Part shown: positions 2,193 to 48,594 of the stretch, piece after piece
Position numbering within the stretch: position 1 is the stretch's first letter
Layout of the letters: the number at the start of each line of letters is the position of its first letter
Source: Geosiphon pyriformis uo1
Lineage: Eukaryota > Fungi > Glomeromycota
Reading direction: 5' to 3'
DNA length: 64,000 bases
Assembly (NCBI GenBank): GCA_016748015.1
Contig: JAAOMT010000082.1
Span: 48,857 to 112,856 of the forward strand
Notes under the pieces: model-generated
Told to the model about the DNA's origin: nothing
The model's database searches: none
Seen by the model: the letters and a program-made list of their open reading frames with translations, nothing else
Translations under genes and position numbers: made by a program

Positions 2193-2322
2193 ATTTTTTT
2201 TTATGTTTAATGAGTGAAGTCCAAACACTATCTAATACAATACATCATACATATAATCTAAATTAGGTACAAATCATGCTTTTGCTACACGTGACTAGCC
2301 ATTCGGACCAAACAGAATGACA

Positions 2323-8957: not shown

Positions 8958-9095
8958 CACAACAAATAAAAGTAAGTTAGAAGAAATATTTAACAAGAAT
9001 TGAGGGGAGAAGGAAAAGGAAAAGCAATTTCTTCAAAATTATCTTTCACTTTCATTGTGGTCAAGGGATTGATGAGAGAAAAATAAATATCTAAT

Positions 9096-17285: not shown

Positions 17286-17420
17286 TATTACTAAAAATTT
17301 TTGGTTTTTTTTACTGAATGTTGTTAATGTTTATTTGCTGTGAATTCATGTTCTTAGGAAATATTTAAACCTCTGATAACTAAATTTATCTTTAAATTAT
17401 TTTTTATAATTTGAACTGCT
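17286..17420 (-). repeat. Decayed LTR end related to the Gypsy-A LTR; interrupts array unit 3 (may extend to ~17830)
   Basis: TATTACTAAAAATTTTTGG..TTATTTGCTGTGAATTCATGTT..TATAATTTGAAC aligns with 30440-30575. Confidence 0.7.
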
Positions 17421-17835
17421 GAAAAATACTGTTTTTAAAACACTTTTAAAATCAAATTAGTCAATTTTTTTGGATTATATAGCTTATAATTAAATTTTTT
17501 TATTGTTATTTTGAATTTAAGAAAATTTTAATGCTGTTTTTAATAAAATTAATATTTAAAAAAACTAGATTTGGTTAAAAATACAAAATATGTAAATTTA
17601 ATAAATAGACAAAATTAACAAAAATTACTAAATTACCAAATTTACATATGTAATTTAAAAAATATTAAATATTAAGAATAGCTTTATAATATTAACATAA
17701 TTTCAAACACAAAACAAATTATATTAATAATTTATTTTAATATTTATAATATTTGTACATTATTAAAATTATGTAATAAATAATATATAATATTTAATAA
17801 TAATATATTATATTGTTAATTAATAATTTAAAAAT

Positions 17836-18680
17836 AATTGGGATATTACCACTAAGGTATGGCATTCTAATTCACATATGCTTGCTGGTTTTACTAGTCG
17901 GAGGTTTTTCTGTCTTCACACATACTTGATGAAAGCTGTGCATCGATGGCTTCTTGTAACAGTTAGAAAATAGTTATATAATAGATTTTACCCTGGTGTG
18001 CTTTGTTTACTGTGTCATGAAGTAGAATTATCAGATCATGTTTTCACGTGTTCTTATGATGTGGAGATTTATAGAGAAGTTTTGGCTGTGGCATCTGCGG
18101 ATTGGCTTTCCATGGTTGGTCTTTGTGGCTCATTGTCTTCTGCTGTTTTGCGATTTCTTGGTTGGTGTTCTGTGGATATTAAATTATATTCAGTTTTGTG
18201 TAAAGGGTTTGTGTTGAGGGAATAATGTGCTGAAGCTGTGGGAATTTTTGATAGTAAAAAGGAGACTGTCAGTGCTGTGGTAGGCTTTGTTGAGCATTTA
18301 GTTGAGCTGCATTATTCTAAGGCCTGGTTGGTGAGGTTGGTGTTTAGAGTGAGAATAGAGAAAGCTGGTTTGGTTGGAGATGATAGTTTGTTTTCAGGTT
18401 TGTTTCGCTGCTTGGGTTTTTTGTTGTCCAATAAGATGGTAAGAATGCTCAGTGTTGCTGGCTTTTTTGCTGTTAGTTTTGGCTGTTGCAGGTCTTGTCT
18501 CTTTTTCTCTGGTTTGGATGGTAGTCCGTGTATTAGTATTGGTGTGTAGTATTGTCTTGTCTGGCCTGAATGACTAATTACATGTAAAAAATGTGAGCTG
18601 TATTTAGTTTGAGCCTCTTAGTTTGGTTCTATGTATTAGATAGCAGTTGGACTTCATTCATTAAAAGCATAATAAAAAAA
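17836..18680 (+). mobile_element. 5'-truncated LINE (3' end of ORF2, 3' UTR, poly(A))
   Basis: VWHSNSHMLAGFTS..CLLCHEVELSDHVFTC..SPCISIGV* followed by the shared 3' UTR and an A-tail; tail-to-tail with LINE B. Confidence 0.88.
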
Positions 18681-18754
18681 ATAAATAATAATTTATTATT
18701 TAAAATAAATAAATTCATTAATATTAAAGCTTTTTTATGTAAAATTTTTATTTT

Positions 18755-21700
18755 ATTTTATTTTATTTTAACAAGTGAGGTCCAAACACTACCTAGTGCT
18801 ATACATTAAAGAAATAATCTAAACTAGGCATAAATTATGCACTTTCTATACGTAATCAGCCACTTGGGCCAATCAGAACAATATTATGCAACTATATGAA
18901 CTGAAACCAAGTCACATATACTTGAGAAAAATAAACAAAATTTGCAGAACTCAAAACAAACTCCAAAAGCTTCAGTAATGCCAAGCAATTTGATCACACC
19001 AGTAGAAAACCCCAATATCAAACCAGAAATTGACACAAAAACCAAATCATTCAATAGAATCAATCTAGCCTTCTCTATATAGACACAATGTTTAACACGT
19101 ATTATTCAAATATCATTCCTAAAGATGAGACCAAGAGAGTGCACAAATTTAATAACCTCTAAACTGACAACCTTGGGATTATAAAAGATGGAAATGGCTT
19201 TGTGAAACCAATTATCAAAAACAAAATCTTTATATAAAGTCATGGATATGGAGAAATCAGAAACACAAGATGACAATAGCTGCAACACACTTGAAGAGAA
19301 GTGAGAGAAACCAGAAAGAGCCTTCCATGAAGCCATATGGGAATTTAATATTTGATGTTTAGTAGAATTGTTGACCTCACAAAAAAACACATGATTTAAC
19401 ATCTTTATATTACCACAATACAAACACAACACACTAGAATAATATTTATCATAAAAACATTTCTAAATGGCAACAGACAGCCAATAATGTAAGGCTTTCA
19501 TAAAATAAGTATGTGCACTAGCTGATGATCTGCTAGTAAAACCAGCAGTTATGTGCAAATCAGGATGCCACACCAGCAATGAACAGAGCCAATTGACTTT
19601 ATAAAGCAAGTTATCTGTTAAAAACTTGGAACCAGAACCAACTTCTCAGCATACATAACAAATAAAATGATAAATATTACATATAAAATGTTTATAATTG
19701 CCAGAAACAACACCATTATTAGCCATTATAAAGCATTTATCCAAGCAAAGAAGAAGATTCCAACCAAGAAAGAGGTGGTACCAACAATCATATTAGCATG
19801 CTCATTCTCTGAAATGCCAGAGTAACCTTTTACTTTGTGCCAATTAACTCTTAAATTCTTACTATAAATGACATTAACAATATGCTAATGCTCAATCTAA
19901 TACTGATTGCAAAAGTCAGAATACACCAGACCTAATTCTAACTTACAAGCATCCAGAGCAAATTGACTATCTGAAAACAAATGAACAGAGCTAAATAAAA
20001 GAATACACTTCAGGACCAGTGCAATAGCCTGTAATTCTACTATAGTTGATAACATCATACCCAATATATTAATGCCCAAACCCAAATTAATGTTCTTAAA
20101 AAAAGTGGCAGCACCAGCTTTATAGCCAACTGTGTCCAAATTCTTTAAAGACCTATCCATATATACAGATAAACTACCAGAACCAATCTGAAAGAAATAG
20201 TCACAAACAAATACAAAATTACCAGAGTTAAGAATGTTTAAAAGACCAACTCCACTCAAAACCAAAGGATGAGTAGAAAAGAAAGCCATACCATTGAAAA
20301 ATGTTACAGAAATTTTGAACCACTTGGGAACAGAGCCAAAGAAATCCAGTCTCTTCGACCACCTGAAAATACACCAATCAAAGACAGCATCATAACTATT
20401 ACAAAGTTAATTCACAAAAACTATGCCATATTAATAGAGAAAAAAAAAAAACTTGAGAAATCTTGACTTACCCAAAACAGCAGACATGGAAATCCCACTA
20501 TAACACTAAAAAGAACTGGTCAAAAAGCTGCCCAGAGACAAATTGCAATCAAGAAGAATATGAATCATGTCTGCCAGAAAGTTATTAGAAGCATTGACAC
20601 AAATATGGACAGGATAACCCAATAAATGAACAAAGCACTAATACAGAACTTGTAAATCATAAGACCTGTAAAAAAACAAGTGACCCAAAACACCATCAGA
20701 GTTTACAAAACTAATAAGAAAAGCAATTTTACTCTTAGACTGAACTTGTAAAAAAGATTTCAGATCATAAAAGAAAAAGTGATAAATTGTATCACTAAGA
20801 AAATTGAGTGGTAAACCAGATTTAAGTTTCAAGTTCTTATGAATTAGAGCATCTTACTTGTTGCACATATTAATAGAAACAAAGCTAAACTGCATCCTAT
20901 AGCTAACTATAGAATAGAGAACTGCTAACACCAAATACAAGAGCTGCTTATCTAAGATAACCTTTCTCAAAACCAGATTGGTAAAAAAATGAATGTCTGA
21001 ATTGCCTTAGCCAAACTAGACTTCAAGAGACCCTCAATTAAAAAAATATATCCAAATACTAATAAGATTTACCCTTTTTGGCAATAGAGATTGGTGAGCT
21101 ATTAATAGAAAAAGAAGAATTGTTGACCCTGCTATTGATGGAAATAGCTACTGTTTTGTTATTATTAATTGAAATGTCATTGATCTGAAAAAATTCACCA
21201 GCAATATTGAGAATATGTTGGGTAGCACTCTAACTGCTACCAACCTAAATTATATCATTGACAAAAACACCAGCAGCAAAAAAGAATGAAAGTTCAGTCT
21301 GAGATTCAACATGATCACTTTTGAAAATAAAATAAGAATTCAATCTATACTTATACATACTTTCTTGGCACTTGACTTTACACAATAAAGGATCATAAAA
21401 TATGTGTCACAAAAGAGGAGAAAATACCTCTTTCTGGTTCAAACTATTATGCATATGATAACCACCCATCAAACCAAAATCTGTCATAACTCAGTTGGTG
21501 CAATTTCTATAAATACTACTGAAAAATCAAATGAACTTGCTGCACATTTTAATCTTAACCAAACTCTTTTCAAGATGCTTTCAGCCAACTGAATTGTATG
21601 CTTTTTGCATGTCTTGTAAAACTAATCAAAGCTTCTAATCTTTTTTCAAAGCATTCTCAATAACTGAACCAATTGTGAAAATGGAAGACTAAGTTATTAT

Positions 21701-24700
21701 ATCCTTCAAAACCAAAAAATTGTCCTTACAAAAAATGTCAAAAATACTGCAAGCCAAAGAAATCCTGTCAGAAAAAATCTTGGAAAAAATCTTACAAGCC
21801 ATTTCAATTAAAATAATAGAACAGATATTTGTCAGAACACTTTTCCACTCATATGGTTTGAAAATCATCAAAACCCAAGCCTTCTTCTAAGAGCTGAGCA
21901 CCAATTTACCAGACAAACAAAAATTCAAAAGTGCCAAAAGCATATTCAAAACTGTCTTATTACAATGCTTCCAAAACTCATTTAATACACCTGAGAAACC
22001 AGCAGCTTTGTCATTAGGCAGATTAGAAACCACTCTAAACAATTCATCAAATTCAAACAAACACATAACACCAGAAAAGAGTTTATCAAAAACATACTCC
22101 AAAAGTTGATATTGATAATGCCAGTTACCAGAAATATTATCTACCACTCTATACTTTTCAGTCTAACTCTCCATGATCACATCTATCTTAAACTTAACCA
22201 AATCAGATTGCAGAATCAGTTCATCATTAACTATCAAATGATTAAGTACCACTTTGTGAAACAAATATTCTAGCACACTTCTAATCATATAATCTTTATT
22301 AACTTCAAAGCTTTCTATTTTCTTATTAATATTAGATCTGATGTTTGCCTCTTTAGCCCTCAGAGATTCAGCAAGCTTGGCAGCACAGTAAGATTTTTTA
22401 GCACTCAAGAGAGCAGAATAGATATGATTAGAGCCAATATCAGAGTTCACTACATTCTAAATAACTAAAGCCTTAATATTGTTTAAAGAAATCCAGCATT
22501 TCATAAAAGAATCAAAATTCACAACACTTTCCTCATGCGAGGCCTTAACAATTCTAAAAACCAAAAGTACCAATTTGTGAAATCTCAAAGATTTCTTGGT
22601 GAAGACATCATCAAAGTTCTTGAACCATTTCTTCTTAAACATCTTATTAGCCAAGAGAACCATTATTTTGCGAACAATATCTCACATTACATTTAAATCT
22701 GAAAACCTTGTGAAGATGGCAAACTCATCTAAAAACATTGCTGCATTGGCCAATATAGCATCCTTAAAACCATTCTATTTAGTCTTATTGGCATCCTTAA
22801 AATTGAACTTTCATCAATTGCTATTTGCTTGCTTGCAAAGAAAGTTTAGCTGTGTATCCAAAAATTCTCTCAAACCCACAAACACAGAAATGGATCAGTG
22901 ATCTGTATCAAAATGCTTGCTGACTTTTGAAACATCATGATACACTATTACATTAATCAGATTTAGAGAAACAAACACATAATTAATTATTTCATGATGC
23001 CTCTAAAATTTGCCCAAGTAGGCTCTTTTACAATTGGGCTGCTGACCAAGAAATTAATTAGTTCCAAATCAAGGCATTTTTTAAAACTTGCACACTTATG
23101 GGAACTATTCTCATTAAAATCACCACTGAAAATAACAAAAAAAATTCATTGACAGCCTTTGCAATAAGAAAATTGATATTATCAGCCTAAGAAAACTGAA
23201 CTGCCAAAGAAGTACCAACATAAAGCCCTAAAATCAACACTGAAAGTTTATTCTTAAAAAGCAACTTGATAGACAGAAGCCAACCAGGCACCTCTAAAAC
23301 CTTGCACACATGTTTTGTCAAAGAAAAGTTTATGATAACCACAATATTAGCACCTAGATAACCAGATTCCAAACCAGAGATAAACATTCACACACTACCA
23401 AATTTGTTGACAATCCAGAGGCAAACTTTTTTTTTAACTTTGATTCCATAAAAATAGAAACTAAATTGTCTTTGTCTCTATGCTAACAAATGATATCATT
23501 TTGTTTTGCAGAATTGTTCATTTTTCTAATATTACAAGTAGCAATTTTTCAAACCAAACCACTCATTGAGAAGAAAAAAACATTCGAAAACTTGAGCCAA
23601 CACACAACTGATCCAACTTCACCAAAACTGAACCAATTGAGACTTCCAGAGCCACCAACTTGGATTCCAAACAGCCCATCTTAGTTGTCAAAATTTTTAA
23701 GCTACTGAGACCCAGAGCCAAAACAACAAAGGGAGGTGTAGGCACTACTACAAAACTATTCAAAACCATATCTGAGTTCAAATCCAAGTCAATATTTATT
23801 AGGACAACTGAATGACCAGAAAAAGGAGGGAGGGCCAAAGGCACCAATTTCATGCCACTGATTTTGCACACAATACCAGAAACTTGATCACTCAAGAGCT
23901 CTAAGAAATGTTCCAAAGAGGCCAAACAAGCACTCAAAAATGAATTGTTGATCAAAACAAAAAGAGAATTACCACTCAAATCCAAGGCACCAGAAAGAAA
24001 AAAACCAGAATCAGAATCATAACCAAATTAAAGACCTCCAGAAAAAGATGCAAAAGAAACTATCTAAACCCAAGACTTGCCATCAAAAGCAGCAGAACAA
24101 AAAATAGAAACATTTTTTTTGGCATATAACCTGGTTAACTGAAGACCACTTACATCAGAAGTATTTCTTTTAAAGCTTTTTTTAGAAGGAGCAGACACCA
24201 GAATGTCAAAAGCATCACATTCCAAGACTGAGAGTTCGAACTTCCCATACTTTTTACACTAAACCAAGTTTAATTTGGCCCAAAAAAGTCTTATACCACT
24301 AAAAATTGGCTCAGTGCAAAATGTAGATTCAAGCTCATTTTCAGATTCAAAACCAATAACAGTGCAGTGAATCTAATTGCCAGTTTTCAGTGAACAATTA
24401 ATTACACAAATTTTCTTATCAGTCCCTTTTAAAAAAATACTAAGATTGTACACAGTTGTTCCTATTAACAAAGTAAACAAAAGCACCCTAAAGCAATCTC
24501 TAGACATTCAAGTATTCTGATCTCTTATGACTATAGCTACACACACTGAGTTCTTCTCAATAAGGAATGATCATCTTGATGCCAGTTGCTTTGCCTGTTC
24601 CAATTCGGCAAATTCTACCACAGTCTTCTGTTACATTCCAATTAACTAAATCTTGATCAACTTAATTTCCCTAAATACAGATACTGTAGCAATGATTATT

Positions 24701-25560
24701 TTCTTTGGTGTATTTATAAGAATTTTTTTAATTACTACAGCCCAATCTGAATGAATTTTTTGTTTTTTAAGATTATTGTTTATGGTAATCTCTTTCTTTC
24801 TGGCCAATGATATAGTCTTTTCCATGTTTTTCTCTGAGATAAATGTAGATCTGATGATCTCTTCAAAATTTAAGGAGATAGTGGTCCCCCCAGAACCATT
24901 GATTGTTGAAAAAATTTTTCTGATGAATTAAGTTTTTACCATTACCAATTTTCTTTTCACAGCCGAGAAATTAATGTCCAAAGCAAATAACTTTTTAACT
25001 GAGACCTTTATCTGAATCTTGACAATTTTGGGGTCAAACCACTTTTATCTAGAGAAATTGAGAGATGAGAAGAAAGAGAGACTTCTTCATTATCATTTAT
25101 GTCAAAGTTGAAAGAACTAAGTGAAGAACCAAAAACAGCACTAGTATTGACACACTTTGTTTTAAAAGTGTTGACAGCCAAATCCAAGAGAGACTCAACA
25201 TTAATGCCAGTTATATTAGCATCTTTTTCATTATCAGACAGATTATCCACATCAAAAAACATATTATTACTAAGCTCAGACTTGTTTAGAGAGATATTTT
25301 TTTTATTATCTGAGTGTTTGACATTTTTAAGCACAATTTTTTTTTTTTATAAGAAGAAGCCACTTACTAGACCATGAAAAACACCCTTTAATGTCTTCTT
25401 TTTAGACATGTTGTCACTAAAAGCAGTCTTCAAATCCACGAAAAAAGAGTTATTAGAAAGAAAAATTGTAAGATACTAACAAGAAAAAAAATAAAAAACT
25501 TCTTTTTAGAAAAGCACTTTTTAAGAATTTGTAGATGTAAGAAAAAAAGAAGTTTTCTTA
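18755..25560 (-). mobile_element. LINE copy B, full-length, decayed (ORF1 ~23563-25430; ORF2 ~18884-23566)
   Basis: APE, RT (KPYEW, GVFVNDII), RNase H (VYMDRSL, VELQAI, FSDSQ), Zn finger CLYCG..HVFFC; shared 3' UTR at 18770-18885. Confidence 0.92.
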
Positions 25561-27094: not shown

Positions 27095-27240
27095 AATTTT
27101 TTTATTATTATTAAATTTAATAAGTTTAGTTCAATTATTATCTAAAAACATATAATTATATAAAATTCTATATTAAATATAACTTATGATTTTTTTATAC
27201 ATGACCAGCCACTTGGATTAATTAAAACAGCACTAAACAT
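27095..27240 (-). mobile_element. Orphan LINE-type 3' end (stop codon and 3' UTR) cut by the Gypsy-B LTR
   Basis: Minus strand TAGTGCTGTTTTAATTAATCCAAGTGGCTGGTCATGT matches the 3' UTR at 48443-48480. Confidence 0.75.
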
Positions 27241-28109
27241 TGTTACAGATGTTTATTTAGGGTCTCAAAACAAATAATAAATCCGTAACTTGGTGCTTGG
27301 TTGGTATTCTGGTGTTGATCTCTGAAGGTTTGATTAATCTGAAAGTTTTGTTGCAGAGTTTTTTGTATAATAGACAGAGATTTTAATAGTTGTTTCAGTA
27401 GCCTCCTGGAATTGCAATTTCATCAAATTTCTTTCTCAGCATGGTGGCTGGTAATCCTCCTGGTAAGCTATTCTCAAATTTATGAGTGTTCTATCTTTGT
27501 TTTACGGGTTTTTTACCAGTCTCTATGACATCTGTAACTCAGTGCTTTAATTTTTAATCAATTAGTCAACCAACAAGAAATACAAAAGAAATAAAAAAAA
27601 TAAAAGAAGATAAAGAAATAAACAAAAACAATTGCAAATTAGTATCCTGTCAATAGCCATGATTAAGAGCTATTGTTCCAATGTAGTTAAGTATTAATTA
27701 CTATTAACATAAAGTATTAATAATGGAAAGTGAATTGAGATAATGAATAATTATTTATTAATATTTGTAAATGGAAGGTTGCTTAAATCAGATCTAAACT
27801 AAGAGGTCTCTAACTAAAAAAATTCTGTTTTTTTTTCTCCTTTTAACACTACTGCTATATATACATAATTGAGATTCTTTGATTCCTCAATTTCTCACAC
27901 CAGGAATTTTGGAATTTCCAGAATCCTGCAATTCTTCTTGAGAGAAATCCTGGAATTCTGGAATCCTGTAATTCCTTATACAAAAATTCTGAAATTTCTG
28001 GAATTCTGCAATTCTTCTTGAGAGGAATCCTGGAATTCCACATTTACTACAGTTATTTCTAATTGGCTAATTTATACTAATATATATTTTTTATATTCTA
28101 TGAGTAATA
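27241..28109 (-). repeat. Gypsy-B 3' LTR (869 bp)
   Basis: Minus strand TATTACTCATAG (decayed TGTTACTCATA)...CATCTGTAACA; directly preceded by the PPT at 28110-28125. Confidence 0.85.
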
Positions 28110-28123
28110 TTATTCCCTTCTTT

Positions 28124-28783
28124 TTAATATTGAGCTCTGTTGAGATTTTCCAAATCTCCTAACTCTAATTCTCTGTTTTTGAGTATTTTTTGAACTTCTT
28201 TTTCGAGAATTACTTGAGTTATTTTGTTTTGTAATTCTTCAAATTGGGTGTTGGTTATTTTTTCCATTTGGTTAACTGTAATGGAGTCCATTTCCAGATT
28301 GAGTAAAATTTCCAGTCTGTCTTGGAATCCAACATGCAATTAATAGATGGCTCTTGCTTGTGTTGTTAGATTGTTTTTGCCCATAAATTGTTTTAGTTGT
28401 TGCAATATTGTTGTGTCAAATAATTGTTTTGTTTTATCCATATATAAGTTCTGAATATTCAAGTGTCATCTTAAATGAAAATAATAAAAGTTTCTTGGAA
28501 ATTCGTGTATCCATCATTTCCAAGTTTTTTTGGTCAACTCTTGATATGTGGTGACAATTGTTGGTTCTTCTATTGTTAATTTTATTTTTAGAACTATTTT
28601 GTTGATAGTGTTTTCTGTTTTTCTTTGACTTTTGTATTTGGGTATCTTTCTGGTATCTCAGTATTTAATAATTTGTTGATTGATAGTAATTTCCATATTC
28701 TGTTGTTGAATCAATTGGAAGATTTGTTGTGCTAATTAGTGGATGTTGTCAGTGATTTCCATTTTTCTGAAGTCTTCTGTCAT
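28124..28783 (-). pseudogene. Gypsy-B ORF3 (post-integrase ORF of unknown function)
   Basis: Reading through stops: HEFPRNFYYFHLR*HLNIQNL...ARAIY*L...EILLNLEMDSITVNQMEKITNTQFEELQNKITQVIL; homologous to Gypsy-A ORF3. Confidence 0.7.
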
Positions 28784-30439
28784 GTCTACTATGTTCTTAT
28801 ATCTTTTTTTTATTGTTCAATTTTATGTGTTTGGTCCAATGATTATGATTGGTTCCAGATCTCATGGAATTTCATTTGGTTGGACTAGTATTCTTTATAC
28901 TCCTAATTGTGAAATATTACTGGTAGATGGTAACACTATATAGTAATATGATTTTAGTCAATTACCATCTGCTGCTTTGGTTAAGATTTTGTTGTTCAAC
29001 CTTAATTTGTAAGCTCCATTTCTAAGAATTTCTTCTATGTGAAATGGTCTGTTCTATTTTAAGTCAAATTTTCTACTCCATTGTTTTTTTGCTTTAATAC
29101 AATGTAAAAATACTTTGTTTTTAATCTTGAATTCAACTAGTTTATCTGGTAGTTGGTTATCATGTCTTTTTTTTTGTTTTTTTTGTGACTTTTGAATGTT
29201 ATTAACTGTTTTTTGCTGTTTGTTTTCTAGTGTTTCCATTAATTCATATGTTCTTCTTAGCAATGTTTCTTGAAAATTGTCTTCTATTATTGGTTCTATT
29301 GGATAAGTGTTGACTTTTATCTCAACTGGTAATGTTGCTGTTCTACCATATACTAATTCAAATAATGTTGCTTGTATAGTGTCTTGTTTCATTGTCCAAT
29401 AAGCAAATAATACTAATGGTATGAACAATTCTCATTTGTCCTGGTTTTCTTGGCTGATTTTGGCAATGACTTTACACAATGTTCTGTTAAATTTTTCAAC
29501 TAGCTCATTTGTTTATAGATAGTATGGTAATAATAATGGTCTTTTTATCCCAAATCTTTGACTTAATTCTGTCAATGTTCTATTCACAAAGTGTGTTTTT
29601 TGATCTGATAATAGTTTTTTTGGACATCTGTGTCGACAGATCAAATCTTGATGAACAAATTTGGCAACAGATTCTGTATCTGCTCTTTGAATGGCTTTTG
29701 TTTTTGGCCATTTGGTGAGATAGTCTATAGCTACTGTAATATATCTGTTGCTTCTATTGGTAATTGTTAATGGTCCAACTAAGTTAATTCCAATGCAATC
29801 AAATAGTTGTCCCACTTTGATTGGTCTTAATGATTCACTGGATTTTGTTCCATCTTTTCTCTGACAACATTACAATTTTGAACATATTAGATGATGTTTG
29901 AATATATTAATGACCAATAATATCTCTTTCTGGTTTTTTCCATAGTTGCTTCTTTATGAAAATGTCCTGTTGTTGGATCTGAGTATATGTTAAATAATAT
30001 TGTCTCTTTTTCTGGTTCTGTAATTACTCTGGTTGATTGATCTGGATTTTCTTTGTTCTTCTAATAAAGTATATTTTAATGGTTGATAAAATATTTTAAT
30101 TGCTGTTTTATGTTGTTTTATTCTTTTTAAGATAATTTCTCCTTGAACAATTGAGTATTTATATAATATTAGAGTTGTTGGTATTTTTGTATATTCATGT
30201 TTTGTTATATTTTTGGGTTGAAATGTTTTTTTAGATTTGTCTTATTTGTGACAAACCATCAGCATTTCTATTGTTTTTTCCTTTTTTATAATGTACTGTA
30301 TAATTGAATAGTAAAAGTTCTATTTTCTATCTGGCATGGCGATCGTCTCTAAATTTTTGCTTCTAGATTGAAGTCAATCCTTTGTGATTAGTGTACATAT
30401 CAAATTTTTGACTCAAATACTCTTTCCACTTGATGACAG

Positions 30440-31425
30440 TGTTACCGGAGGTTTTTGGTCTCTTTTCTGTAATATTGTTGATACTTATTTGCTGTGAATT
30501 CACGTTTTCTGGATGTGATTGAACCTCCAGTAACTGAATTTTTAACTTCAAATTATCTCCTATAATTTGAACTTGCTGGGCTTATAAGTGGAATGACCAA
30601 TTCCGTGCCAGTTGCTTTATGTAGTTATATTGTAATAAACGTCAACTCTTTTTCAGGAATTGCTCATCTGGAAGCTCACTAAAAAATGTGTAGTTACTTT
30701 GCTGTGAAAGTCAACTCTTTTACAAGAATCTTGTCTGTAGACTACCCTAATGATTGTAATAAGAAAAAAAAAGAAAAATAAAAGAAATGTAAAAGAAATA
30801 GGATTTTTATCAAGGGAAAACGTTTTCTATCCAGGCCTGGAGTCACTAACAGTTTACTGAAATTAATAACTAATCAATTTCGAAATGTTAGTTGGGTTTT
30901 GAGGATTTTCCAAGTACAATAATTAAAGAATTTGGTTTTTTAAATTATTTGATATTTATTTCTTTTTGTGTGTGTAAGAATAGTTCTAAGTAATAAGTCT
31001 AAAGTAAGATACATTTTCTCGAAAAGAGAAGCTCTTCTTTTATACAACTTGTCGTAACACTATTCTATGAACTTGAACTTTGCTATTTTCTACAATTTCG
31101 CTGAACTAAAGATACATTTTGGCAAACTACAAGTTATTTCTGCGAACTATTAGATATTTCGGTGAACTATCAATTATTTCAGCGAATTTCTATAAATTTC
31201 GGCAAACTTTTGAATGTTACATAGTTCAGGGTATTGCATGATTGATCATTGCAATTAGGTTATATTTGTGTTGTGTACAATTTGGGTTATTAATAAAATG
31301 ATAATTTCGGACATTCTTTGCTAATGTAATAAGTGATAATTTGAAACGATAATATATGCTAATTAATAATAGAAATTATGAGATAATTTCATGTTAAATG
31401 ATATCTCTAATTTCATCTGGTAATA
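30440..31425 (-). repeat. Gypsy-A 3' LTR (986 bp)
   Basis: Plus strand TGTTACCGG...CTGGTAATA; colinear with 39103-40019. Confidence 0.93.
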
Positions 31426-32070
31426 TAACCTCCTCCTCAAGACTGAGCTCCGTCGAAGTCCAAGTACTGTCTGTTATTTCCAGATAATAATCCAAAATTA
31501 TTGATGAAATTTGGTCTGAAAATTGCTGAAATTTCAGTTCTGTGACTTTCCAATGTATTAAATCTTCAAAGATTGAAAAATTGGGTTTTGTAGTATGTTT
31601 TCACAGGTGTGGAATAGGTCATAAAGTTTAAGAGCAGCTTTAAGCCTGTAGCGACTGTTTGTTGATCCAGCTGTTGTCTTGAATTCGTTGTGGAGTTGTT
31701 TCTGAATAGCTTCTTTTGTGAGATTTGCTGTTGTAAGTTCCAGTTTCTGTTCATAGAGTGTTTTTCCAATGTGAAAATATCTATAAATTGGAGGATATTC
31801 AGTGTTTTTCTCATTGAGACACAATTGAAGTTTTTGTTGAATTGTAGCATTTGGTGGAATACTAATCGGAGTGAGCATTAGGTTTTCTCTTAAAGCAAGC
31901 TTTAAAAGTTCTGGCAGGTGAATTTCAGTATAACTTCTTGTGTTCTTTTTATACAGGTGATGTTTTTGTGAATTTGGGGCTAAATTTGTAACTTCTTCTG
32001 TTTGGGTATAATTTATGTGGTTTCCAGTAACAGTAATGAATAATTCGGGTATTGTTTTTAAAGCTAACAT
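31400..32070 (-). pseudogene. Gypsy-A ORF3 (env position, non-env); 170 aa open, plus ~50 aa after one stop and one frameshift, running into the LTR
   Basis: ORF 31558..32070; continuation (Q)YIGK/VTELKFQQFSDQISSIILDYYLE...EEEVILPDE. Confidence 0.75.
31426..31440 (-). promoter_or_regulatory. Polypurine tract of Gypsy-A
   Basis: Minus strand TTGAGGAGGAGGTTA immediately before the LTR. Confidence 0.85.
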
Positions 32071-32239
32071 TAGTTTTTGGGATAATTGTTAAATGTTTTG
32101 AGGAATAGTTATTATAAGCAATTGAAAAAAATTATTTTTGGTGTATGGATTTTTATGTTATTTTTGTTTTGTTTTTGTAAGATTGTTTCTAAATTATAAG
32201 AGAATAACTAGTAAAATTAAATTAAGTGTTCAGGTTGGA

Positions 32240-33607
32240 AGGTTGTTCAATGACAACTATTGGTTCTAAGTTTTGGGGAATATCTTCGGGACTGACCAAA
32301 GGGGAATGTGTACCAATTTGTGGAATTAATGGTTCAGGATTGTTTCTGGAATGATAGTGTTTCAAATGATCTTCATGTGCAACTTTTGCTAGGATTTTGT
32401 CATCAAGTCTTAGCTTGTATGATCCATTGCCTAGGACTTCATGGATAAAGAATGGTCCATCCCATTTATTTTCAAATTTTCTACTTCATTGTTTTTTAGC
32501 TTTAGTTCTGTATAAGAGAACTTTGTTTCCAATTTTGAATTTATTGGTAACTGAAGGCAATTTGTCATTATGCTGTTCTTTTTGTTGAGCTTGGGAGTGT
32601 TCAATATGAGTGGTTGCTATTCATCGTTTTCCTTCCAATGTGCTAAGCAGAGTGTAGGCTCTTCACTGAAGCATTTCTTGGAAATTGTTTTCATTGATCA
32701 GTTGTGCTGGGTATGTTTCCACTGTGAAACTAATTGGTAATGTTGCCATCTTTCCATAAGTTAAATCAAATAGTGTGTGTTTTGTGGTATCTTGTTTTAA
32801 TGTCCTATATGCTAGTAATACTGATGGAATAAAGAGATCCCATTCTTGCTCAAAATCGGTTAAGACTTTGGCTAATGACTCACACAATGTTCTGTTAAAA
32901 TGTTCCACAAGTCTGTTTGTTTGTGGATGGTAGGGCGAAGACAGAGGTTTTTTGACATTGAATCGTTCACAAATTTCTTGTATCAGATTGTTCACAAAGT
33001 GTGTTCTCTGATCGGATAAAAGTTCAATTGGACATTCATGTCTACAAATAATGTCTTCGTAGATGAAATTTGCTACTGATTTTGCATCTGCTCATTGCAT
33101 GGCTCTGGCTTCAGGCCATTTAGTAAGATAGTCTACAGCTACTGCAATATAACGGTTTCCTTGAGTGGTGATAGATAGTGGTCTGACTAAATCGATACCA
33201 ACTTTGTCAAAAGGCTGTTCAACTTTAATTGGATTTAAAAGTTCTGTAGGGTGAGTTCCTCCTCTTCTTTGACAACTATCACAAGATTCGACATATTTGT
33301 AAATGTCTTTTCTCATTCGAGGCCAAAAGTAGTATTTTAGTGTTTTTTGGGTGGTGCTATCTTTTCCGAAGTGTGCTGATGAAGAATCCGAGTGCATGTT
33401 GTATAAAATGGTCTCTTTTTCCTGTTCTTGTATTAATCTGAGTGGTTTGGTTGGGTTTTTGAAATTTCGATGATAGATAATGTTGTTGTGTAGAAAATAT
33501 TGTTTGACTTGTTGTTGTAACTGATGTTTTTTGTCTGGGGACCAATCTGTTGGGATTGTTAATGTCTCCAAATATTGTTTGAGATTGTTGTAGTTTTCGG
33601 GGTTCAT
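32240..33607 (-). pseudogene. pol: Gypsy-A integrase (HHCC, core, GPF module)
   Basis: MHSDSSSAHFG..CDSCQRR, VGIDLVRPL, AVDYLTKWPEA, SPYHPQTNRLVEHFNRTL, KWDGPFFI. Confidence 0.93.
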
Positions 33608-33719
33608 TGTTTGTTGTTTTGATGCTGTTAATTCAATTGGGTGTTGGTTTTGTTTCTAATCTTGCCTCATCCTTGAGAGACAATTAATGTTGGTGTGGAG
33701 TTTTCCTGGTTTGTGGTGT

Positions 33720-34900
33720 ATGATGTATCGGTAATTAGCTAAAAATTCTGTCTATTGGGTTTGTTTTGCGTTCAGCTGGGTGTTTTTGTTTTGAAGCCAT
33801 TTAAGTTCAATATTATCAGTAATAATATCGAATTCTTTGGGTCTGAGGTAAAGGTTGAAGTGATGTAGGGCCCAGATTACTGCTGCGGTTTCTAATTCTG
33901 TTGTGGGGTAGTTCTTTTTGGCTGGCTTTAATGTTCTACTAGTATAAGCAATTACTTGCTCATTTCCATTGTCATCTAACTGTAATAAGATGGCACCAAA
34001 GGCAGTATAAAAAGCATCAGTTGCTAACTGGAATTGGTTGCTGAAGTCTGGGTAGGCAAGGATTGGGGCTGTTGTGAGTTTTTCCTTGAGTATTTTGAAG
34101 GCATTTTGGTGTTCTTTTGTCTATTTGTATTTGACATTTTTCATAGTGAGCTGGTTGAGGAGTTTTGCAATTTTTGAGAATCTTTTGATGAATTTTCGGT
34201 AATAGGATGCTAATCCAATAAATCCTCTTAATTCTGTGGTATTTCGTGGAGTCTTGAAGTTTTTGACAGTACTGATTTTTCCAGAGTCTGGTTTAATTCC
34301 ATCTTTGCTAACAATGTGACCAAGAAAAGTTAAACTTGTTTTTCCGAAGTAGCATTTTTCAATGTTCAGTTTCAATCCTGCTTTCCGTAATCATTGAAAA
34401 ACTTCTTGTAGATGAATTAAATGTAGCTCGAAAGATGATGAATAAACATCAGTGTCATCAAGATAAACTACTACTGATTTCCAAAGGAGGCTTTTGTAAA
34501 CAACATCAGTCTTTGGAATGTTGCTGGTGCATTGTATAATTCGAAAGGCATTACATTGAACTCATAATTTCCTCCTTGAGTGGTGAATGCTGTTTTGGGG
34601 TGGTCTTTAGGATCCATAGCAACTTGCCAGTATCCACTTTCTAAATCTAATGTTGAAAAGTATTTGGACTTTCCAAGAGCATCCAACATGTCATCAATTT
34701 GGGGAAGAGGGTAGGCATCCCCAATAGTGACACTGTTGAGTTGTCGGTAATCAACACAAAATCGTATCTTTCCATTTTTCTTTTTAACTAGAACCACAGG
34801 TGAGGCCCATAGGCTTATTGATGGTTGAATAAGCCCATTGTTAAGCATCTGTTATACTTCTTCTTGGATAAATTGGTGACTTTCTGGAGCAACTCAGTAG
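33720..34900 (-). pseudogene. pol: Gypsy-A reverse transcriptase and RNase H
   Basis: WASPVVLVKKKNGKIRFCVDYRQLN, LDLESGYWQV, VMPFEL.NAPATFQR, VVYLDD, FLGHIVSKDG, FQLATDA. Confidence 0.95.
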
Positions 34901-35493
34901 GTTTGTTGTCGCCTGGGTTTGGCATCTCCTGTATAGATTTGGTGTTGAACCAAATCAGTTCTTCCTAAGTCATTGTTGTTTTCGGCGAAGATATCAGCAA
35001 ATTCTGCAATTAGTTTTTTGAGCTGGGTCTGTTGTTGTAGTTCAAGTTGTCCCATGTTGATTTGAGATAGTTTTTCCATAACAACATGGTAGTTTTCAGA
35101 GCTAGGATTTGGGTTGATTTTCAGTAGTGAATGTCTAATAATTTCAGAGAAATCAGGAACTGTTTGGGGTAATTCTTGTTGAAATATATTACTGTGAATA
35201 ACTCCAATTTCTAAATTATTTAATAAAATTATGGGATAATTATTGGGGTTGTAAAAAGTAACTCAGACTTTCTTTGTTTCTTCTGGAATATAAATGTTTG
35301 GGATCAAAATATTATGTTCCAAGCAGACTTGTTCATTGGACTCAAAAATTTGTTGTGTGGTTGTTGGCTTTGTGCAAGTGTAAATTTCTGGATGTTCTCC
35401 AAAGGGTAAGATGGTAATTGGTTGTGGAAGTCTGAGAATCTGGTGGGATTCATTCTGTGTGTTAAGAGCTATATTAACTGAAACTGTGAATCG

Positions 35494-35925
35494 TCCAGTT
35501 GAACCAAAACCTTGGGTTCCTCTATTGCTTTTTCCTAATTGTTCTCTTTGATTGACTAGTTGCAAACCCGAAATGTTGATTAAGGGTAAGTAAATAGCTT
35601 GGGCAATTTTTTCAGCATGTTCGATCTTGAATGGTTTGTCAGTCTCATTTTGAAGCATCACTGTTATGTCTCCAGTATATCCAGCATTGATTATTCCTCC
35701 TCTGACATTGATTCTTTTGCTTGCCAAAGAGGACCGAGAGGCGATTTGAACCATTGCTCCTGGCAGGATTTCGAGTGCAATTTTGAGGTTGATTTTTGTG
35801 AGAGATTTGGGTTTGAGAACAAGAGTATCCTTGCCTGGATATCTTAGGTCATATCCAGCATTAATTTCGTGTGCTTTTTCAGGTTTTATTCCTTGTCCGT
35901 TGTTGTTGAAGTATTTAAGTTGTAA
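35494..35925 (-). CDS. dut: Trimeric dUTPase domain within Gypsy-A pol (between PR and RT)
   Basis: All five motifs: AGYDL, ASRSSLA, GGIINAGYTG (D>N decay), KIAQAI, RGTQGFGSTG. Confidence 0.93.
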
Positions 35926-36045
35926 GGCAGGCTGATTTTCAATAAAATAGATGGGTGTTGTTTCAATTTCTTCCGTTTCTTTAGGTTCTCCAAATTCAAT
36001 TTCATTCTCATCATTTTCGTTAGGCAAGGGGGTACTAAGAGCATA

Positions 36046-36665
36046 GCATTCGGGACACCATTGTTCATCGCAAGGCATAATGCATTCTTCATATAGCCTA
36101 ATGTTCATTTGCTCTAATCATTGAATTTGAGCTTCTTGGGTCGGGTAGGTGTGACTTGCAATTTGGTAATAGACTTTTACTTCATCTTCGTAATTGAATC
36201 CAGCTAATTCATAGTGTATTCAATGTATTCTGCTTCCTTCATTTGACGAACATCTTCTTTGGTAGCTCTATTAATTAATGCCATTGCTAAGTCGAAAATC
36301 ATCTCGGCATCATGAGGGTAGTGATAAAGTTTGTTGAGAGCACTGTTGTATGCTGCATTAAAGGGTGTTCCTCTTTTTATTTTTTCTGAAATTGATAAGG
36401 CATATTGGCAGGTCTGATTGCAAACACTTCCTCTCATTGCTACATCAATCCAATTGCATTCTTCTAATAGCATATCTCCACAAGTCAAACAAGCAGTGTT
36501 GTCCCATTTTCTGCTCCTTTTTATTAGATGGCCCCATCGCTCTCTGTGGCAAGCCTTGCAGTAATAACAAGTGTGATTCTCATATTCTTCTTCAGGTGAA
36601 ATGCAGGCTTCCATTGATGATAGTTTCTTGTGGCAGTCCTTACATTTAAGGGGAATATAGGGGCA
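36046..36665 (-). other. Cys-rich (multiple CxxC) inserted domain between protease and dUTPase
   Basis: CKDC..CYYCKAC..CLTC..C..CNQTC, a helical stretch, then ECIMPCDEQWCPEC. Confidence 0.7.
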
Positions 36666-36879
36666 TTGTTTTCTTGGTTCGGGTTTTGAGTAAGGTATAT
36701 TCCATCCAGAGGTTTCAGGTTTAGTGTGTGGGGTAAAATGTTCTTGTTCTGTTTCATCAGCCCAGTTGGACATTGATTCAAGAACCATGAATGTTTCGAT
36801 TATTGGTTTTTTTTTTTTTGGTTCAAATTCAAAAGCCGGGGCTTTTTCAGAGCATTTGTTGAATGTACCACAAATGGCA

Positions 36880-37230
36880 AGTACCCAGGCATGTTGTCCT
36901 TGGTAGGAGATTGTTAATTCTTGTGTTTCCCAATTCAGATTAGCATTGGCTTTTTGAAGCCAATCATTTCTGACGAGAGCTTGGTACTGGGGTGCATTCA
37001 TTACAAGAACTTTGACTAGAATGGTGATTCCATCAAGAGTAAATAGAAAATTGTCAATTTCTCTCACTGGTGTCTTTTTCATGCCATCGGCAATAACAAT
37101 TACTGTTTGAGCTGGTCAGTCGACATTTCTTTTCAACTGTTGCATTAACTGGTAGGTAATAATGCTTCCGGCGGATCTGCTGTTTAGGATCAAGCAAATT
37201 GGCTTTCTTTTTACTTCAGCTTCTGTGTAC
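36880..37230 (-). pseudogene. pol: Gypsy-A aspartic protease
   Basis: ICLILNSRSAGSII (decayed LILDSGSAGS), VIVIADG, QALVRNDWLQKANA. Confidence 0.85.
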
Positions 37231-37449
37231 ATTGCAGTAATGGCTTTTTGCTCATTAGCCACTGCATTGCTAAGCAAGAATGGTGATTCATTTGCTTCAA
37301 ATTCAAAAGGAAAGATATCAGAGAGATTGGCGTTTTCAGCAATTCGGGCTGGTGGAATAGTGGTGTGGTTATGAGAAGAGTTTCGTTGTTGTTGTGCTGC
37401 AGCTCTACCTTCCAAGAGTACAGTATGGTAAAAATTCTGTTCTTCCAGC

Positions 37450-38646
37450 ATTGTTAAATAACTGGGTTGAGTGTGATAATGGTTGGGTCTTGATTGAATG
37501 ATATTTCAGGGAACCAATTGGTTGTTTGAACTGATTCTACTGTTGTTTACTTGGTATCGGTTTTGTGGTGTGAATTGATTTTGTGTAATCAGTCTTTGAG
37601 CAGGTACTTGATAATGTTGTATGGGTGGTTGTTGGTATTGCTGTTGGATTGGTTGTGGGGTGGGCTGATAATAATTATTTTGGTATTGGGGTCTTGGTGG
37701 ATAGTAAGCTGGTGGTAATGGTTGATAATAAGATTGCTATGGTGGAGAGTAACGTTGATTACCCCTATTTTGTTGGTCTCATTGCAACTTTCTGCAATCT
37801 CTTTTCCAGTGGCCAGAGATTCCACAGTAATGGCAATTTTGGGGCTGGTTATTGGAAAGTGGTGCAAAGTTATTTTGATTTCATTTTTGGGGTGGTTGAT
37901 ATCTTTGGGGTTGTTGTTGTTGGTTGGTAAAATAGTTTTCGACCTTCTTTGTGAGTTGGTCAATTTTTTTCTCAGCTTCTGAGCTGGTTTCTCCAATTGC
38001 CAAATTTACAAGTTTTGTACAATTGGCTTCTTCTATGACCATTTTGTATCTTTTTGCGTGCTGTATTGCAGAGTTTAAATCTTCTGGCGCATATGGGCAA
38101 ACCTTTTTAATTAGTTTATCTTTTAGACCAGCAATAAATTGATCCAAGATTTGAGCATCGGAATAATAATTGTTTGTCTCGAGTTGGTGAATCCATCTGA
38201 GAAGTTTGTTGAATTTCCCAATATAAGTCATAACGGATTCAGAGGGTTCTTGTTTGATATTTCGAAAATGATTGCGAAGAGTGATAGAGGTATTATTGTC
38301 AGTGAACTGTTCAAGAAAGGCTGCTTTGAAAGCATTCCAATTATTGAATGGGGCGGCAAGGTTTTCAAACCATTCTCCTGCTGTTCCTTTGAGAAAGTAG
38401 GGAATTGTTCTTAACATTCTGGCAGCATTCCATCCATTTGCATCTCCAGCTTTAGTAACTTGGTCAAGCCATTCTTGGGAACTGGTCTCAATATCTTTTC
38501 CATTGAATTCAGGGATTTTTGCGATGTATGTTGTCATTTTGTTTTCTTCGTTTTCACTGTCTATTGATTCTTCTTCGGTTATTTCAGAGTTGTTTTCTTC
38601 GTTTGCTGCTGTCTCAAAGTGTTCACTTTGATTTTCAGCTAGAAAA
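37450..38646 (-). pseudogene. gag: Gypsy-A gag (capsid domain and intact CCHC); N-terminus lies in the gap
   Basis: IPEFNG..EWLDQV..YFLKGTAGEWF..FKAAFLEQF..QFIAGL; CHYCGISGHWKRDC at ~37793-37835. Confidence 0.92.
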
Positions 38647-39102
38647 NNNNNNNNNNNNNNNNNNNNNNNNNNNNNNNNNNNNNNNNNNNNNNNNNNNNNN
38701 NNNNNNNNNNNNNNNNNNNNNNNNNNNNNNNNNNNNNNNNNNNNNNNNNNNNNNNNNNNNNNNNNNNNNNNNNNNNNNNNNNNNNNNNNNNNNNNNNNNN
38801 NNNNNNNNNNNNNNNNNNNNNNNNNNNNNNNNNNNNNNNNNNNNNNNNNNNNNNNNNNNNNNNNNNNNNNNNNNNNNNNNNNNNNNNNNNNNNNNNNNNN
38901 NNNNNNNNNNNNNNNNNNNNNNNNNNNNNNNNNNNNNNNNNNNNNNNNNNNNNNNNNNNNNNNNNNNNNNNNNNNNNNNNNNNNNNNNNNNNNNNNNNNN
39001 NNNNNNNNNNNNNNNNNNNNNNNNNNNNNNNNNNNNNNNNNNNNNNNNNNNNNNNNNNNNNNNNNNNNNNNNNNNNNNNNNNNNNNNNNNNNNNNNNNNN
39101 NN
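38647..39102. other. Assembly gap (456 N)
   Basis: N run covering the end of the 5' LTR, the PBS and the gag start. Confidence 1.
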
Positions 39103-40019
39103 TTCTGGATGTGGTTGAACCTCCAGTAACTGAATTTTTAACTTCAAATTATCTCCTATAATTTGAACTTGCTGGGCTTATGAGTGGAATGGCCAATTCT
39201 GTGCCAGTTGCTTTATGTAGTTACATTGTAGTAAACATCAACTCTTTCTCAGGAATTGCTCGTCTGGAAGCTCACTAAAAATGTGTAGTTACTTTGCTGT
39301 GAAAGTCAACTCTTCTACAGGAATTTCGTCTGTAGGCTACCTTAATGATTGTAATAAGAAAAGAAAGAAAAATAAAAGAAGTGTAAAAGAAATAGGATCT
39401 TATCAAGGGAAACGTTTTCTATCCAGGCCTGGAGTCACTAACAGTTTACTGAAATTGGTAGCTAATCAATTTCGAAATGTTAGTTGGGTTTTGGAGATTT
39501 TCCAAGTACAATAATTTAGAGAATTTGGTTTTTCAAATTATTTGATATTTATTTCTTTTTGTGTGTATAGAAATGGTTTTTAAAAGATAAATCTAAAGTA
39601 AGATACATTTTCTCGAAGAGAGAAGCTCTTCTTTTATACAACTTGTCATAACACTATTCTATGAACTCAAACTTTGCTATTTTCTACAATTTCGCTGAAC
39701 TAAAGATACATTTCGGCAAACTATAAGTTATTTCGGCAAACTATTAGATATTTTGGTGAACTATCAATTATTTCAGCAAATTTCTACAAATTTCGGCAAA
39801 CTTTTTGAATGTTACATAGTTTGGGGTATTGCATGATTGATCATCGCAATTAGGTTACATTGGTGTTGTGTACAATTTGGGTTATTAATTAAATGATAAT
39901 TTTGGACATTTTTGCTAATATAATAAGTGATCATTTAAAATGATAATATATGCTAATTAATGATAGGAATTATAAGATAATTTCATGCTAAATAATATCT
40001 CTAATTTCGTCTGGTAACA
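39103..40019 (-). repeat. Gypsy-A 5' LTR (last ~67 bp hidden in the gap)
   Basis: Colinear with 30507-31425; plus strand ends CTGGTAACA. Confidence 0.93.
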
Positions 40020-41730
40020 ACATCAAATTTACAAAGCTTAATTTTTGCACAATATTTGACACTTAATCTGTTAAAAGTTCTAAGAAATATTTTAAAAACA
40101 CTATATAAACACTAATAGATGAATTATTTTAAACAACCAGAAGACTTTTTTTAATATATATTAGACCAGAAAAAAAGAGTCTAGAACTAGAACCAGAACA
40201 AATATTATCAGAAAAAGCAGTAAGCAAAACTATCTAAGTTCAAAATTTGTCATAAAATATAACAGAGCAAGAAATAAAAACATTTTTCTTAGCATATAAT
40301 CTGGCCAACTAAAAACAATTCTTTTTTAAAGCAACTTTTTTATAAAAATTTTTAAAAGGCAAAAGTAATACATTAAATATATTATATTTTAAAACAAAGT
40401 GTTCAAAATATCTATATTTTTTATATCTAATTAAATTTATTCTAGTCCAAAATAGTTTTACACCACCAAAAATTGGCTTTATACAAAAAGCAAATTCTAG
40501 CTTCTTATCTGATTTAAAACCAATTACAGCACAACAAATTCTGTTGCCAGTTTTAAATAATCTATTTATAATATAAATTTTTTTACCAGTCTTTTCTAAT
40601 AGAGCACTAAGATTATGAACAGTTGTTTTCACAGACAAAGTAAAACAAAAATATTTTAAACCAATTCCTAAATATTTAAATATTACAATTTCTTATAGTT
40701 TTCATTACATGTACTAAATCTTTTTTGATTAAGAATAACTATCTAATTACCAACTAATTTGTTTGACTTAATTCAACAAATTTTACTATAGTCTTTTGTC
40801 ACAGCCCAATTAATTACAATTAAATTGGCACAATTTAACTAAACTCAATTATTGCAGTAATGATTATTTTTTTTGGCATATTCATAAAAATTTTTTTTAT
40901 TATCAATTTAATTTGATTTAATTTTTTGTCTTTTAAGATTGTTGTTTATTTTGATTTTTTTTTAACCAATAATATGATCTTATTTATATTTTTCTCTAAT
41001 ATAAATATAGATTTGATGATTTTTTCAAATTTTGAAAAAATAATAACCCTCTTAAAACCATTAATTAATGAAAAAAAAAATTTGATTACTTAAGTTTTTG
41101 CAGTTGCTAATTTGTTTTTTACCACTAAAAAATTAATATTCATTGCAAAAAAATTTTTGACAGCAACTTTAATCTGAGTTTTTATTATTTTAAGATTGAT
41201 TTATTTTTTGTTAAAAGAGATATTAAGAAAAAAAAAGGGGAGTCTTATATCTTTATTTATTCTATAGTTAAATATAATAATAGGGAAATCACAATTCAAT
41301 TCAGTATTAAATTTTTAGCTTTGGAAGTTATTGCAGCTAAACCAAAAAAAAAACCACTACCAGCACTTATTAATATATTATTAATATTTCCATTACTTAA
41401 TTTACTGTTTATATTCAAATAAATATTATTGTCTAGACCAGATTTGACCAAAAAAAATTTTTTTTCATTATCAGAGTGCTTAATATTACTTACAGATATT
41501 TTCTTTTTCTGAGAGAAAGTATCATTAACAAAACTATAAAAAGCTTTTTTAAGCACATTTTTTTTAAACATATTGTCATTAAAAGTAGTTTTCAGATCTA
41601 TTACAAAAAAATTATTAACTTGAAAAATATTAAAATTAATATTATTAAAAGAAACAAAAACAAAAAACAAAAAAACTTTTTTTTTAAAAATTGTTTTTTA
41701 AAAAATTTTAAATATAGAAGAAAAAAAGGT
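40020..41730 (-). mobile_element. LINE 5' fragment (5' UTR and most of ORF1), heavily decayed, cut by the Gypsy-A LTR
   Basis: TTVHNLSALLEKTGKKIYIINR..GNRICCAVIGF; colinear with LINE B ~23840-25560. Confidence 0.85.
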
Positions 41731-48578: not shown

Positions 48579-48594
48579 TAATAATAATAAAATT

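Follow-up and report, generated by a model that had tools for sequence, protein, structure and literature searches.

ORF3, an Apparently Undescribed Accessory Gene Family of Glomeromycotina-Type Ty3/Gypsy Retrotransposons

Introduction

Two decayed Ty3/Gypsy elements, Gypsy-A and Gypsy-B, lie on the minus strand of a 64,000-nt stretch of the Geosiphon pyriformis uo1 genome (contig JAAOMT010000082.1, positions 48,857 to 112,856; this whole stretch is the window, and coordinates below refer to it unless another sequence is named). Each carries, between the integrase stop codon and the polypurine tract (PPT) and 3' long terminal repeat (LTR), a third, non-env open reading frame, ORF3. An earlier sequence-only reading had proposed that these two ORFs are homologous and had quoted peptides from both; position and peptides are found as described, and ORF3-A and ORF3-B are decayed copies of one gene family. 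ORF3 is a real accessory gene family of Glomeromycotina-type Gypsy elements, and apparently an undescribed one: no description of the gene was found in the literature, of which supplements and most subscription papers lay outside our coverage, and none is given in the accessible parts of PMC11952901, PMC3248453, PMC13465315, and 10.1101/2022.10.19.511543.

Two Decayed Copies of One Gene

31394..32112, minus strand: ORF3-A, decayed copy of a 239-aa accessory gene (85-90% identity to the intact paralog P0003, in two frames)
28124..28783, minus strand: ORF3-B, decayed, in one frame with 5 internal stops (64% identity to the intact paralog P0123)

The sequence-only reading placed ORF3-B correctly at 28783-28124 and started ORF3-A too late, at 32070; the true start is 32112, about 14 codons upstream. 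Intact A paralogs are 239 aa long and begin with MTIPQ, while the window copy reads ATA in place of a start codon, is interrupted by stops at 32091 and 31560, and shifts frame near 31546. Both frames had been said to end at or across the PPT: ORF3-A does cross it, running about 9 codons into the LTR to end near 31394, and ORF3-B stops just before it. The absence of DNA similarity between the two holds (best blastn E=0.074), as does the claim that ORF3 is not env: no membrane segment is present in any of seven family representatives, whose 19-residue Kyte-Doolittle maxima range from 0.27 to 1.29, although no dedicated signal-peptide predictor was run. The six frames of the window contain no further ORF3 copies.

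Compared directly by BLASTP, the window copies give a marginal match (E=0.016, 25% across 80 aa, ORF3-A being represented by its open part of 170 aa); intact A and B paralogs match at E=6e-7. The alignment of two profiles, one built from 61 A proteins and the other from 22 B proteins, spans 182 columns, reaching from the N-terminus as far as the last helix, with an HH probability of 83% and a score of 42.9. None of 200 shuffles reaches this score, be it by columns (0/100, maximum 21.3) or in seven-column blocks (0/100, maximum 31.1), and the reversed profile scores 14.2; the proposed homology thus survives the comparison with shuffles that the sequence-only reading had called for.

Distribution of the ORF3 Family

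The best 120 of 176 matches to ORF3-A (203 candidates) are hypothetical proteins of G. pyriformis, and ORF3-B finds 86 such proteins among 176 candidates; one protein of these two sets is nearly identical to the window, in keeping with a Glomeromycotina host. A search of 1.84 billion representatives with the A profile gave 35 matches, adding Geosiphon families C and D and two metagenomic proteins; among the 15 whose names were examined, 13 are from G. pyriformis and 2 are metagenomic. With a wider profile, 66 matches were obtained among 2342 candidates, all from Geosiphon bar two ENA proteins. The resulting 290 ORF3 proteins (A 104, A2 42, B 86, D 52, C 2, E 2, F 2) form seven groups: five from Geosiphon (A, A2, B, C, and D) and two soil-metagenome families. 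They represent at least six element families. Identity between families is 21-37%, A and A2 being 65% identical, and in the tree, which carries warnings of long branches, (A, A2, E, F) stand apart from (B, C, D).

Because 286 of the 290 proteins belong to the five Geosiphon groups, several hundred "hypothetical proteins" of G. pyriformis are copies of one transposon gene. Such a copy number bears on gene counts and on claims about orphan families in mycorrhizal fungi. LTR sequence makes up 41% of the G. pyriformis genome (PMC11952901).

Is ORF3 confined to Geosiphon? A metagenome scan (31 of 64 parts) yielded at least two loci, L001 and L002, from 593 candidate stretches; their hosts are likely fungi related to Geosiphon. 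L001 is a near-intact element in which reverse transcriptase (RT) and RNase H are followed by a stop, the integrase, a 316-nt AT-rich spacer, an intact 230-aa ORF3 with its own ATG, the PPT, and a TGTTACC LTR start. L002 covers the end of an integrase, then another ORF of 128 aa, and then the beginning of ORF3. The 128-aa ORF (family E; L002 425-811, plus strand) lies between integrase and ORF3; tried as an ORF3 paralog, it was rejected (probability 0.1%).

An integrase piece is present in 36 of the 290 gene models and precedes ORF3 in all 36. We rejected a single spliced integrase-ORF3 fusion because the junctions are scattered across these joined models.

The 3' end of the gene lies in a stretch that appears to be constrained as DNA:

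31429..31438, minus strand: Gypsy-A PPT (GAGGAGGAGG), with the GAGCTCA motif, common to B and L001, just before it
31441-31450 and 28131-28137, minus strand, and L001 about 3091-3098: GAGCTCA motif before the PPT, conserved as DNA in the three elements

The PPT-region peptide is found inside 90 of 146 A/A2 proteins, and 45 of 138 B/D proteins terminate in a peptide encoded just before the PPT. The frame in which GAGCTCA is translated differs between two sets of groups, A, A2, E, and F on one side and B and D on the other; the ORF3 tail therefore reflects a constraint on DNA, and conservation of the protein itself stops at the last helix. It is possible that GAGCTCA is a cis signal for plus-strand priming or integration. 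The lentiviral nef frame crosses the PPT into U3. A similar crossing occurs in groups A, A2, E, and F, in a protein unrelated to Nef, whereas B and D stop before the PPT.

No convincing relatives outside these groups came from the following collections. A viral contig collection gave no relative for the ORF3 alignments or for the L001 integrase, and tblastn against phages gave no match; 36 bacterial and archaeal genomes gave a single, stop-containing match at E=0.09; the best PDB sequence match was importin-5, at E=0.07. No Pfam, PHROGs, or NCBIfam family matched ORF3 above noise, and full-length ORF3 drew weak, mixed matches from the ESM Atlas.

Selection on ORF3

If every copy in the window is broken and the two align only marginally, could ORF3 be a passenger without function, or an artefact arising from an AT-rich, helical composition? 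This explanation is largely refuted, and we regard it as scarcely credible: the shuffle controls oppose it, as do site-specific conservation, the neutral simulation described below, and the persistence of intact frames in groups that are 21-37% identical.

Selection was judged by three comparisons: site-specific conservation, open frames set against a neutral simulation, and codon-position identity. (i) Majority differences between A and A2 fall on 6 of 53 columns conserved in other families vs. 41 of 126 columns elsewhere (Fisher p=0.003). (ii) In a neutral simulation started from the L001 ORF, none of 2000 pairs was stop-free at 61% identity or lower. (iii) In a frame-blind DNA alignment of L001 and L002, identity at codon positions 1, 2, and 3 is 53, 63, and 48%, and five of seven gaps are multiples of three. 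Two observations pull the other way: the other four DNA alignments have frame-breaking gaps and no clear codon-position asymmetry, and the share of conservative substitutions is modestly above neutral for some pairs but not for A-A2 and F-A. Since site-specific conservation, codon-position identity, and open frames agree, ORF3 appears, from these comparisons, to be under purifying selection in active lineages. The sequence-only reading's selected accessory gene is thus borne out, while the nucleic-acid binding that it suggested is plausible at most, in view of a basic, conserved segment resembling a helix-turn-helix (HTH) and of weak fold matches.

ORF3 diverges far faster than its neighbor, at about 21-33% identity vs. 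50-57% for integrase; fast divergence has likewise been reported for accessory transposon proteins of Arabidopsis (PMC13547354). Across five groups, integrase and ORF3 show no clear co-divergence (Spearman coefficient 0.44, p=0.2), the Pearson value being driven by the A-A2 pair.

Predicted Structure

An AlphaFold model of P0232 built from a 70-sequence alignment has a mean predicted local distance difference test score (pLDDT) of 72, rising to about 90 at residues 80-160; a narrow A alignment gave a poor model (pLDDT 47). The predicted order is an N-terminal helix and a β-hairpin, a basic linker, a confidently modeled helical core, and a long last helix, with the core ending in a conserved basic helix-G(K/S)TN-helix. 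The best-conserved positions are Y102, Y104, I107, G108, G142, N145, A152, R155, F160, and L167. Segment 124-161, within which G142, N145, and R155 are conserved, is net basic in 7/7 representatives, as is linker 36-56.

Is this a known DNA-binding fold? A likeness to ParB-type HTH domains was our presumption before any fold search, and the fold and profile tests that followed gave weak matches. Helix order is similar in ParB/Spo0J HTH domains (HTH_ParB PF17762, DUF3102 PF11300, DUF1016_N PF17761), which share with ORF3 a G-K-T turn before the best-conserved helix; unlike them, ORF3 has no ParB N-terminal or nuclease domain and no significant score, and it belongs to a eukaryotic retroelement. 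Spo0J/ParB (1vz0) covers 95 residues of the ORF3 core, the longest among 50 rows, with Z 4.7 and a root-mean-square deviation of 5.2, and sigma-factor, Orc6, CHD1 C-terminal, and repressor domains also appear among the weak rows. Against profiles of 26 ParB, 18 DUF3102, and 74 DUF1016 sequences, the best local alignments to ParB, DUF3102, and DUF1016_N are in the expected register. DUF1016_N is also matched in Pfam by 5 of 70 members (best E=0.0039).

Several results count against this reading of the fold and against DNA binding. Unrelated helices score level with the Spo0J row; Z 8 and a Foldseek E of 0.001 were not attained by any fold match, and the N-terminal 75 residues were barely covered. 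The ParB, DUF3102, and DUF1016_N scores are not above block shuffles (reached by 26/40, 2/40, and 10/40, respectively), nor do they stand out in global mode, in which 33, 4, and 68 of 100 shuffles reach them. Pfam noise is equally strong (Glypican, E=3e-5, in 4 of 70 members), and whole ORF3 proteins are not strongly basic (pI 5.4-9.7). The sensitivity of the profile test is low: the known relatives DUF3102 and ParB score 19%, and DUF3102 and DUF1016_N 1%. For the ORF3 fold we lean, tentatively, towards HTH.

A Candidate Regulator of Its Own LTR

What, then, might ORF3 do? The reading that we favor, tentatively and at short of an even chance, is that the protein binds DNA and, in the manner of Tas or VANC, regulates the LTR of its own element. 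The third, non-env gene carried between integrase and PPT by this Glomeromycotina-type Ty3/Gypsy lineage would be expressed either through a spliced RNA or from an internal promoter belonging to it; the protein, predicted to be of HTH type, would be imported into the nucleus and bind repeated motifs in the U3 of its own LTR; and binding would switch the LTR on or shield it from silencing, by activation or by demethylation. Candidate targets are as follows:

31095..31206, minus strand: U3 array of family A, lying about 50 nt upstream of TATAAA and made up of six TT(C/T)GCCGAAAT-like sites spaced 20-21 nt apart
39689-39800, minus strand: the same family-A array in the 5' LTR
27905-28038, minus strand: Gypsy-B U3 array of GGAATTCC/AATT(C/G)CAG repeats

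The GCCCT(A/T)G motif occurs four times in the L001 LTR. In each of the three LTR families (A, B, and L001), a repeat array peculiar to that family sits 40-90 nt upstream of TATA, with a motif missing from the LTRs of the other families. The family-A pattern has 16 matches in the whole window vs. 6.9 expected there, and 11 of the 16 lie in the two arrays; five of nine window matches to the B motif lie within 112 nt. Three points count against these arrays as evidence: the whole-window total of the B motif is unenriched (9 vs. 8.4 expected), the motifs were defined after inspection, and repeats in U3 are a frequent feature of LTRs and may serve as binding sites for host factors. Since the motifs were chosen post hoc and arrays can be host-factor sites, the U3 arrays are possible ORF3 targets, compatible with the regulator proposal and nothing stronger.

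Precedents exist in quite different elements. Foamy-virus Tas (Bel1) is the product of an accessory gene near the 3' LTR that activates its own LTR, the role proposed here for ORF3 (PMC8670036, PMC13220597). Unlike Tas, ORF3 shows no sequence or fold link to that protein and has no env beside it, and its trans-activation is proposed by analogy. VANC proteins of VANDAL transposons are fast-evolving accessory proteins that pair with family-specific short repeats in a methylated genome (PMC6719617); VANDALs, however, are DNA transposons of plants, ORF3 matches no VANC family, and its motifs lie in U3. In Rhizophagus irregularis, a relative of Geosiphon, CG methylation and small RNAs are found at Gypsy elements (10.1101/2021.03.30.436303). 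Should ORF3 be a true family-specific LTR regulator, it would be a fungal retrotransposon counterpart of VANC or Tas and could help explain the expansion of LTR elements in a likely methylated genome; the idea can be put to a direct test with the intact ORF from the metagenome and the three distinct U3 arrays. We think a bolder version distinctly unlikely: that ORF3 is a ParB-type HTH of bacterial ancestry, acting as a family-specific trans-activator or anti-silencer that co-evolves with CpG-containing LTR arrays, in elements that seed a large orphan family of arbuscular-mycorrhizal (AM) fungi.

The layout of the elements invites another explanation. In A, B, and L001, the integrase lies outside a single Pol polyprotein, an RNase H stop being followed by a new ATG:

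33658-33605 and about 30235-30195, minus strand, and L001 772-801: RNase H stop/integrase ATG junction, seen in translations

ORF3 could be an integration cofactor that tethers this stand-alone integrase, or the cDNA ends, to chromatin in place of a chromodomain. Most fungal Gypsy elements have a chromodomain (PMC3248453), but here the integrase ends shortly after its SH3-like domain and leaves no room for one, and the CHD1 and Orc6 C-terminal domains among the weak fold rows would suit a chromatin tether. We nonetheless consider this role rather unlikely: the scattered junctions of the 36 joined gene models indicate no single fusion product, and ORF3 is far more divergent than the integrase it would serve.

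A role at the RNA level, with ORF3 as a Rev/CERV-like RNA-binding regulator that exports unspliced genomic RNA or sets the amount of integrase, strikes us as similarly doubtful. The basic linker and basic helices would fit it, three separate ORFs require regulated expression, and CERV of Cer1 offers a precedent (PMC10309623); PNPase helical and NS1 RNA-binding domains occur among the weak fold rows, and an ESM Atlas translation-repressor family matches at 0.90. However, no known RNA-binding family rises above noise in Pfam, PHROGs, or NCBIfam, and an RNA regulator leaves the family-specific U3 arrays unexplained.

Lastly, the env position and the long C-terminal helix might suggest a structural or transport protein of virus-like particles, one that moves particles between nuclei in coenocytic hyphae, and both a filamentous-virus coat protein (Z 5.2) and a closterovirus coat cluster in the Atlas (0.93) are among the matches. 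This we hold to be very unlikely: ORF3 has no signal or membrane segment, coat rows do not rise above the noise expected of helical models, and the Foldseek viral library gave nothing at E 0.001.

Known 3' ORFs and the Mycorrhizal Link

Extra ORFs between pol and the 3' LTR are of a known kind (PMC5408684, PMC11728184, PMC2774666). The 3' extra ORFs (aORFs) or non-env ORF3s of Ty3/Gypsy elements in bdelloid rotifers (PMC5408684) and in plant Athila/Tat/Retand elements (PMC11728184) are, like the ORF3 described here, conserved and lineage-specific, and their function is mostly unknown according to the same two sources. The Geosiphon ORF3 differs in that neither a GDSL esterase or DEDDy exonuclease domain nor a membrane or transposase domain was found in it; the protein is small and helical, and it belongs to a fungal lineage with a separate integrase ORF.

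The sequence-only reading had also likened the pattern to a motif of a family highly expanded in AM fungi. The link is a possibility, and all that speaks for it comes from a language model: in the ESM Atlas, the P0232 core has as its top matches two Mucoromycota orphan clusters, at 0.95 (176 shared features, 63 members) and 0.94 (98 members). These look-alikes without sequences may be further ORF3s, the expanded AM family, or neither. The profile searches brought up no named non-Geosiphon protein among matches with names (66/66 for the wider profile, 15/35 for the A profile).

Host Elements

39103..40019, minus strand: Gypsy-A 5' LTR, starting with TGTTACC; an N assembly gap at 38647-39102 cuts the LTR
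33656..38597, minus strand: Gypsy-A gag-protease-cysteine-rich segment-dUTPase-RT-RNase H, decayed (Pfam Retrotrans_gag, dUTPase, RVT_1; translations; tblastn with L001 RT/RNase H)
32222..33607, minus strand: Gypsy-A integrase, encoded apart from the preceding frame and starting at an ATG of its own (57% identity to the L001 integrase over 443 columns)
30440..31425, minus strand: Gypsy-A 3' LTR, 986 nt, ending with GGTAACA
28825..30439, minus strand: Gypsy-B remnant comprising the RNase H end, a stop, and a separate decayed integrase ORF (Pfam rve E=7e-7)
27241..28109, minus strand: Gypsy-B 3' LTR, about 870 nt, its end placed by the terminal GTAACA

Gypsy-A is assigned to Ty3/Gypsy by its two LTRs (TGTTACC...GGTAACA), its PPT, and the order gag-protease-RT-RNase H-integrase, with a dUTPase before RT (Pfam, tblastn). 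A stop codon after RNase H closes its gag-to-RNase H segment, and a chromodomain would not fit at the 3' end of its integrase. The cysteine-rich, zinc-finger-like segment and the dUTPase sit between protease and RT, at about 36250-36700 and 35500-35900, respectively (minus strand).

The Gypsy-A LTRs are 92.4% identical, 5' vs. 3', over the 920 nt compared, and decay of the copies is mostly by transitions (55 of 62 substitutions between these LTRs). Gypsy-B starts inside RNase H, directly adjoining the Gypsy-A 3' LTR, and its integrase is about 52% identical to that of A. At its ends, Gypsy-B shows a 3' LTR and a PPT. Its LTR differs from that of A, the stretch common to both being a T-rich one of ~40 nt.

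ATGT flanks both the A 5' LTR (40020-40023) and the B 3' LTR (27237-27240), while CTGT follows the A 3' LTR (30436-30439). The outer ATGT flanks match different parts of another repeat, and the N gap lies inside Gypsy-A; for these two reasons, the two A LTRs may come from different insertions, and the ATGT pattern may be due to chance or to a composite insertion.

Other Repeats in the Window

The window contains no tRNA genes. At 2100-9030, 18680-25050, 41900-48600, and 58800-64000 lie four decayed, mutually related elements that contain RT and an RNase H of cellular type (PF00075) and are likely of the long interspersed nuclear element type. A repeat of 2.2-2.5 kb is present three times, at 9520-12004, 49810-52291, and 54865-57113; its copies are 70-76% alike and have broken minus-strand frames. 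Between 12313 and 17284 (plus strand) run about 2.3 tandem units of 2.13 kb with no long ORF, in each of which a segment matches the 3' half of the B LTR in inverted orientation (65-78%); the units are possibly tandem non-autonomous LTR derivatives. An isolated 128-nt piece of an A-family LTR end (77%) is present at 17298-17421.

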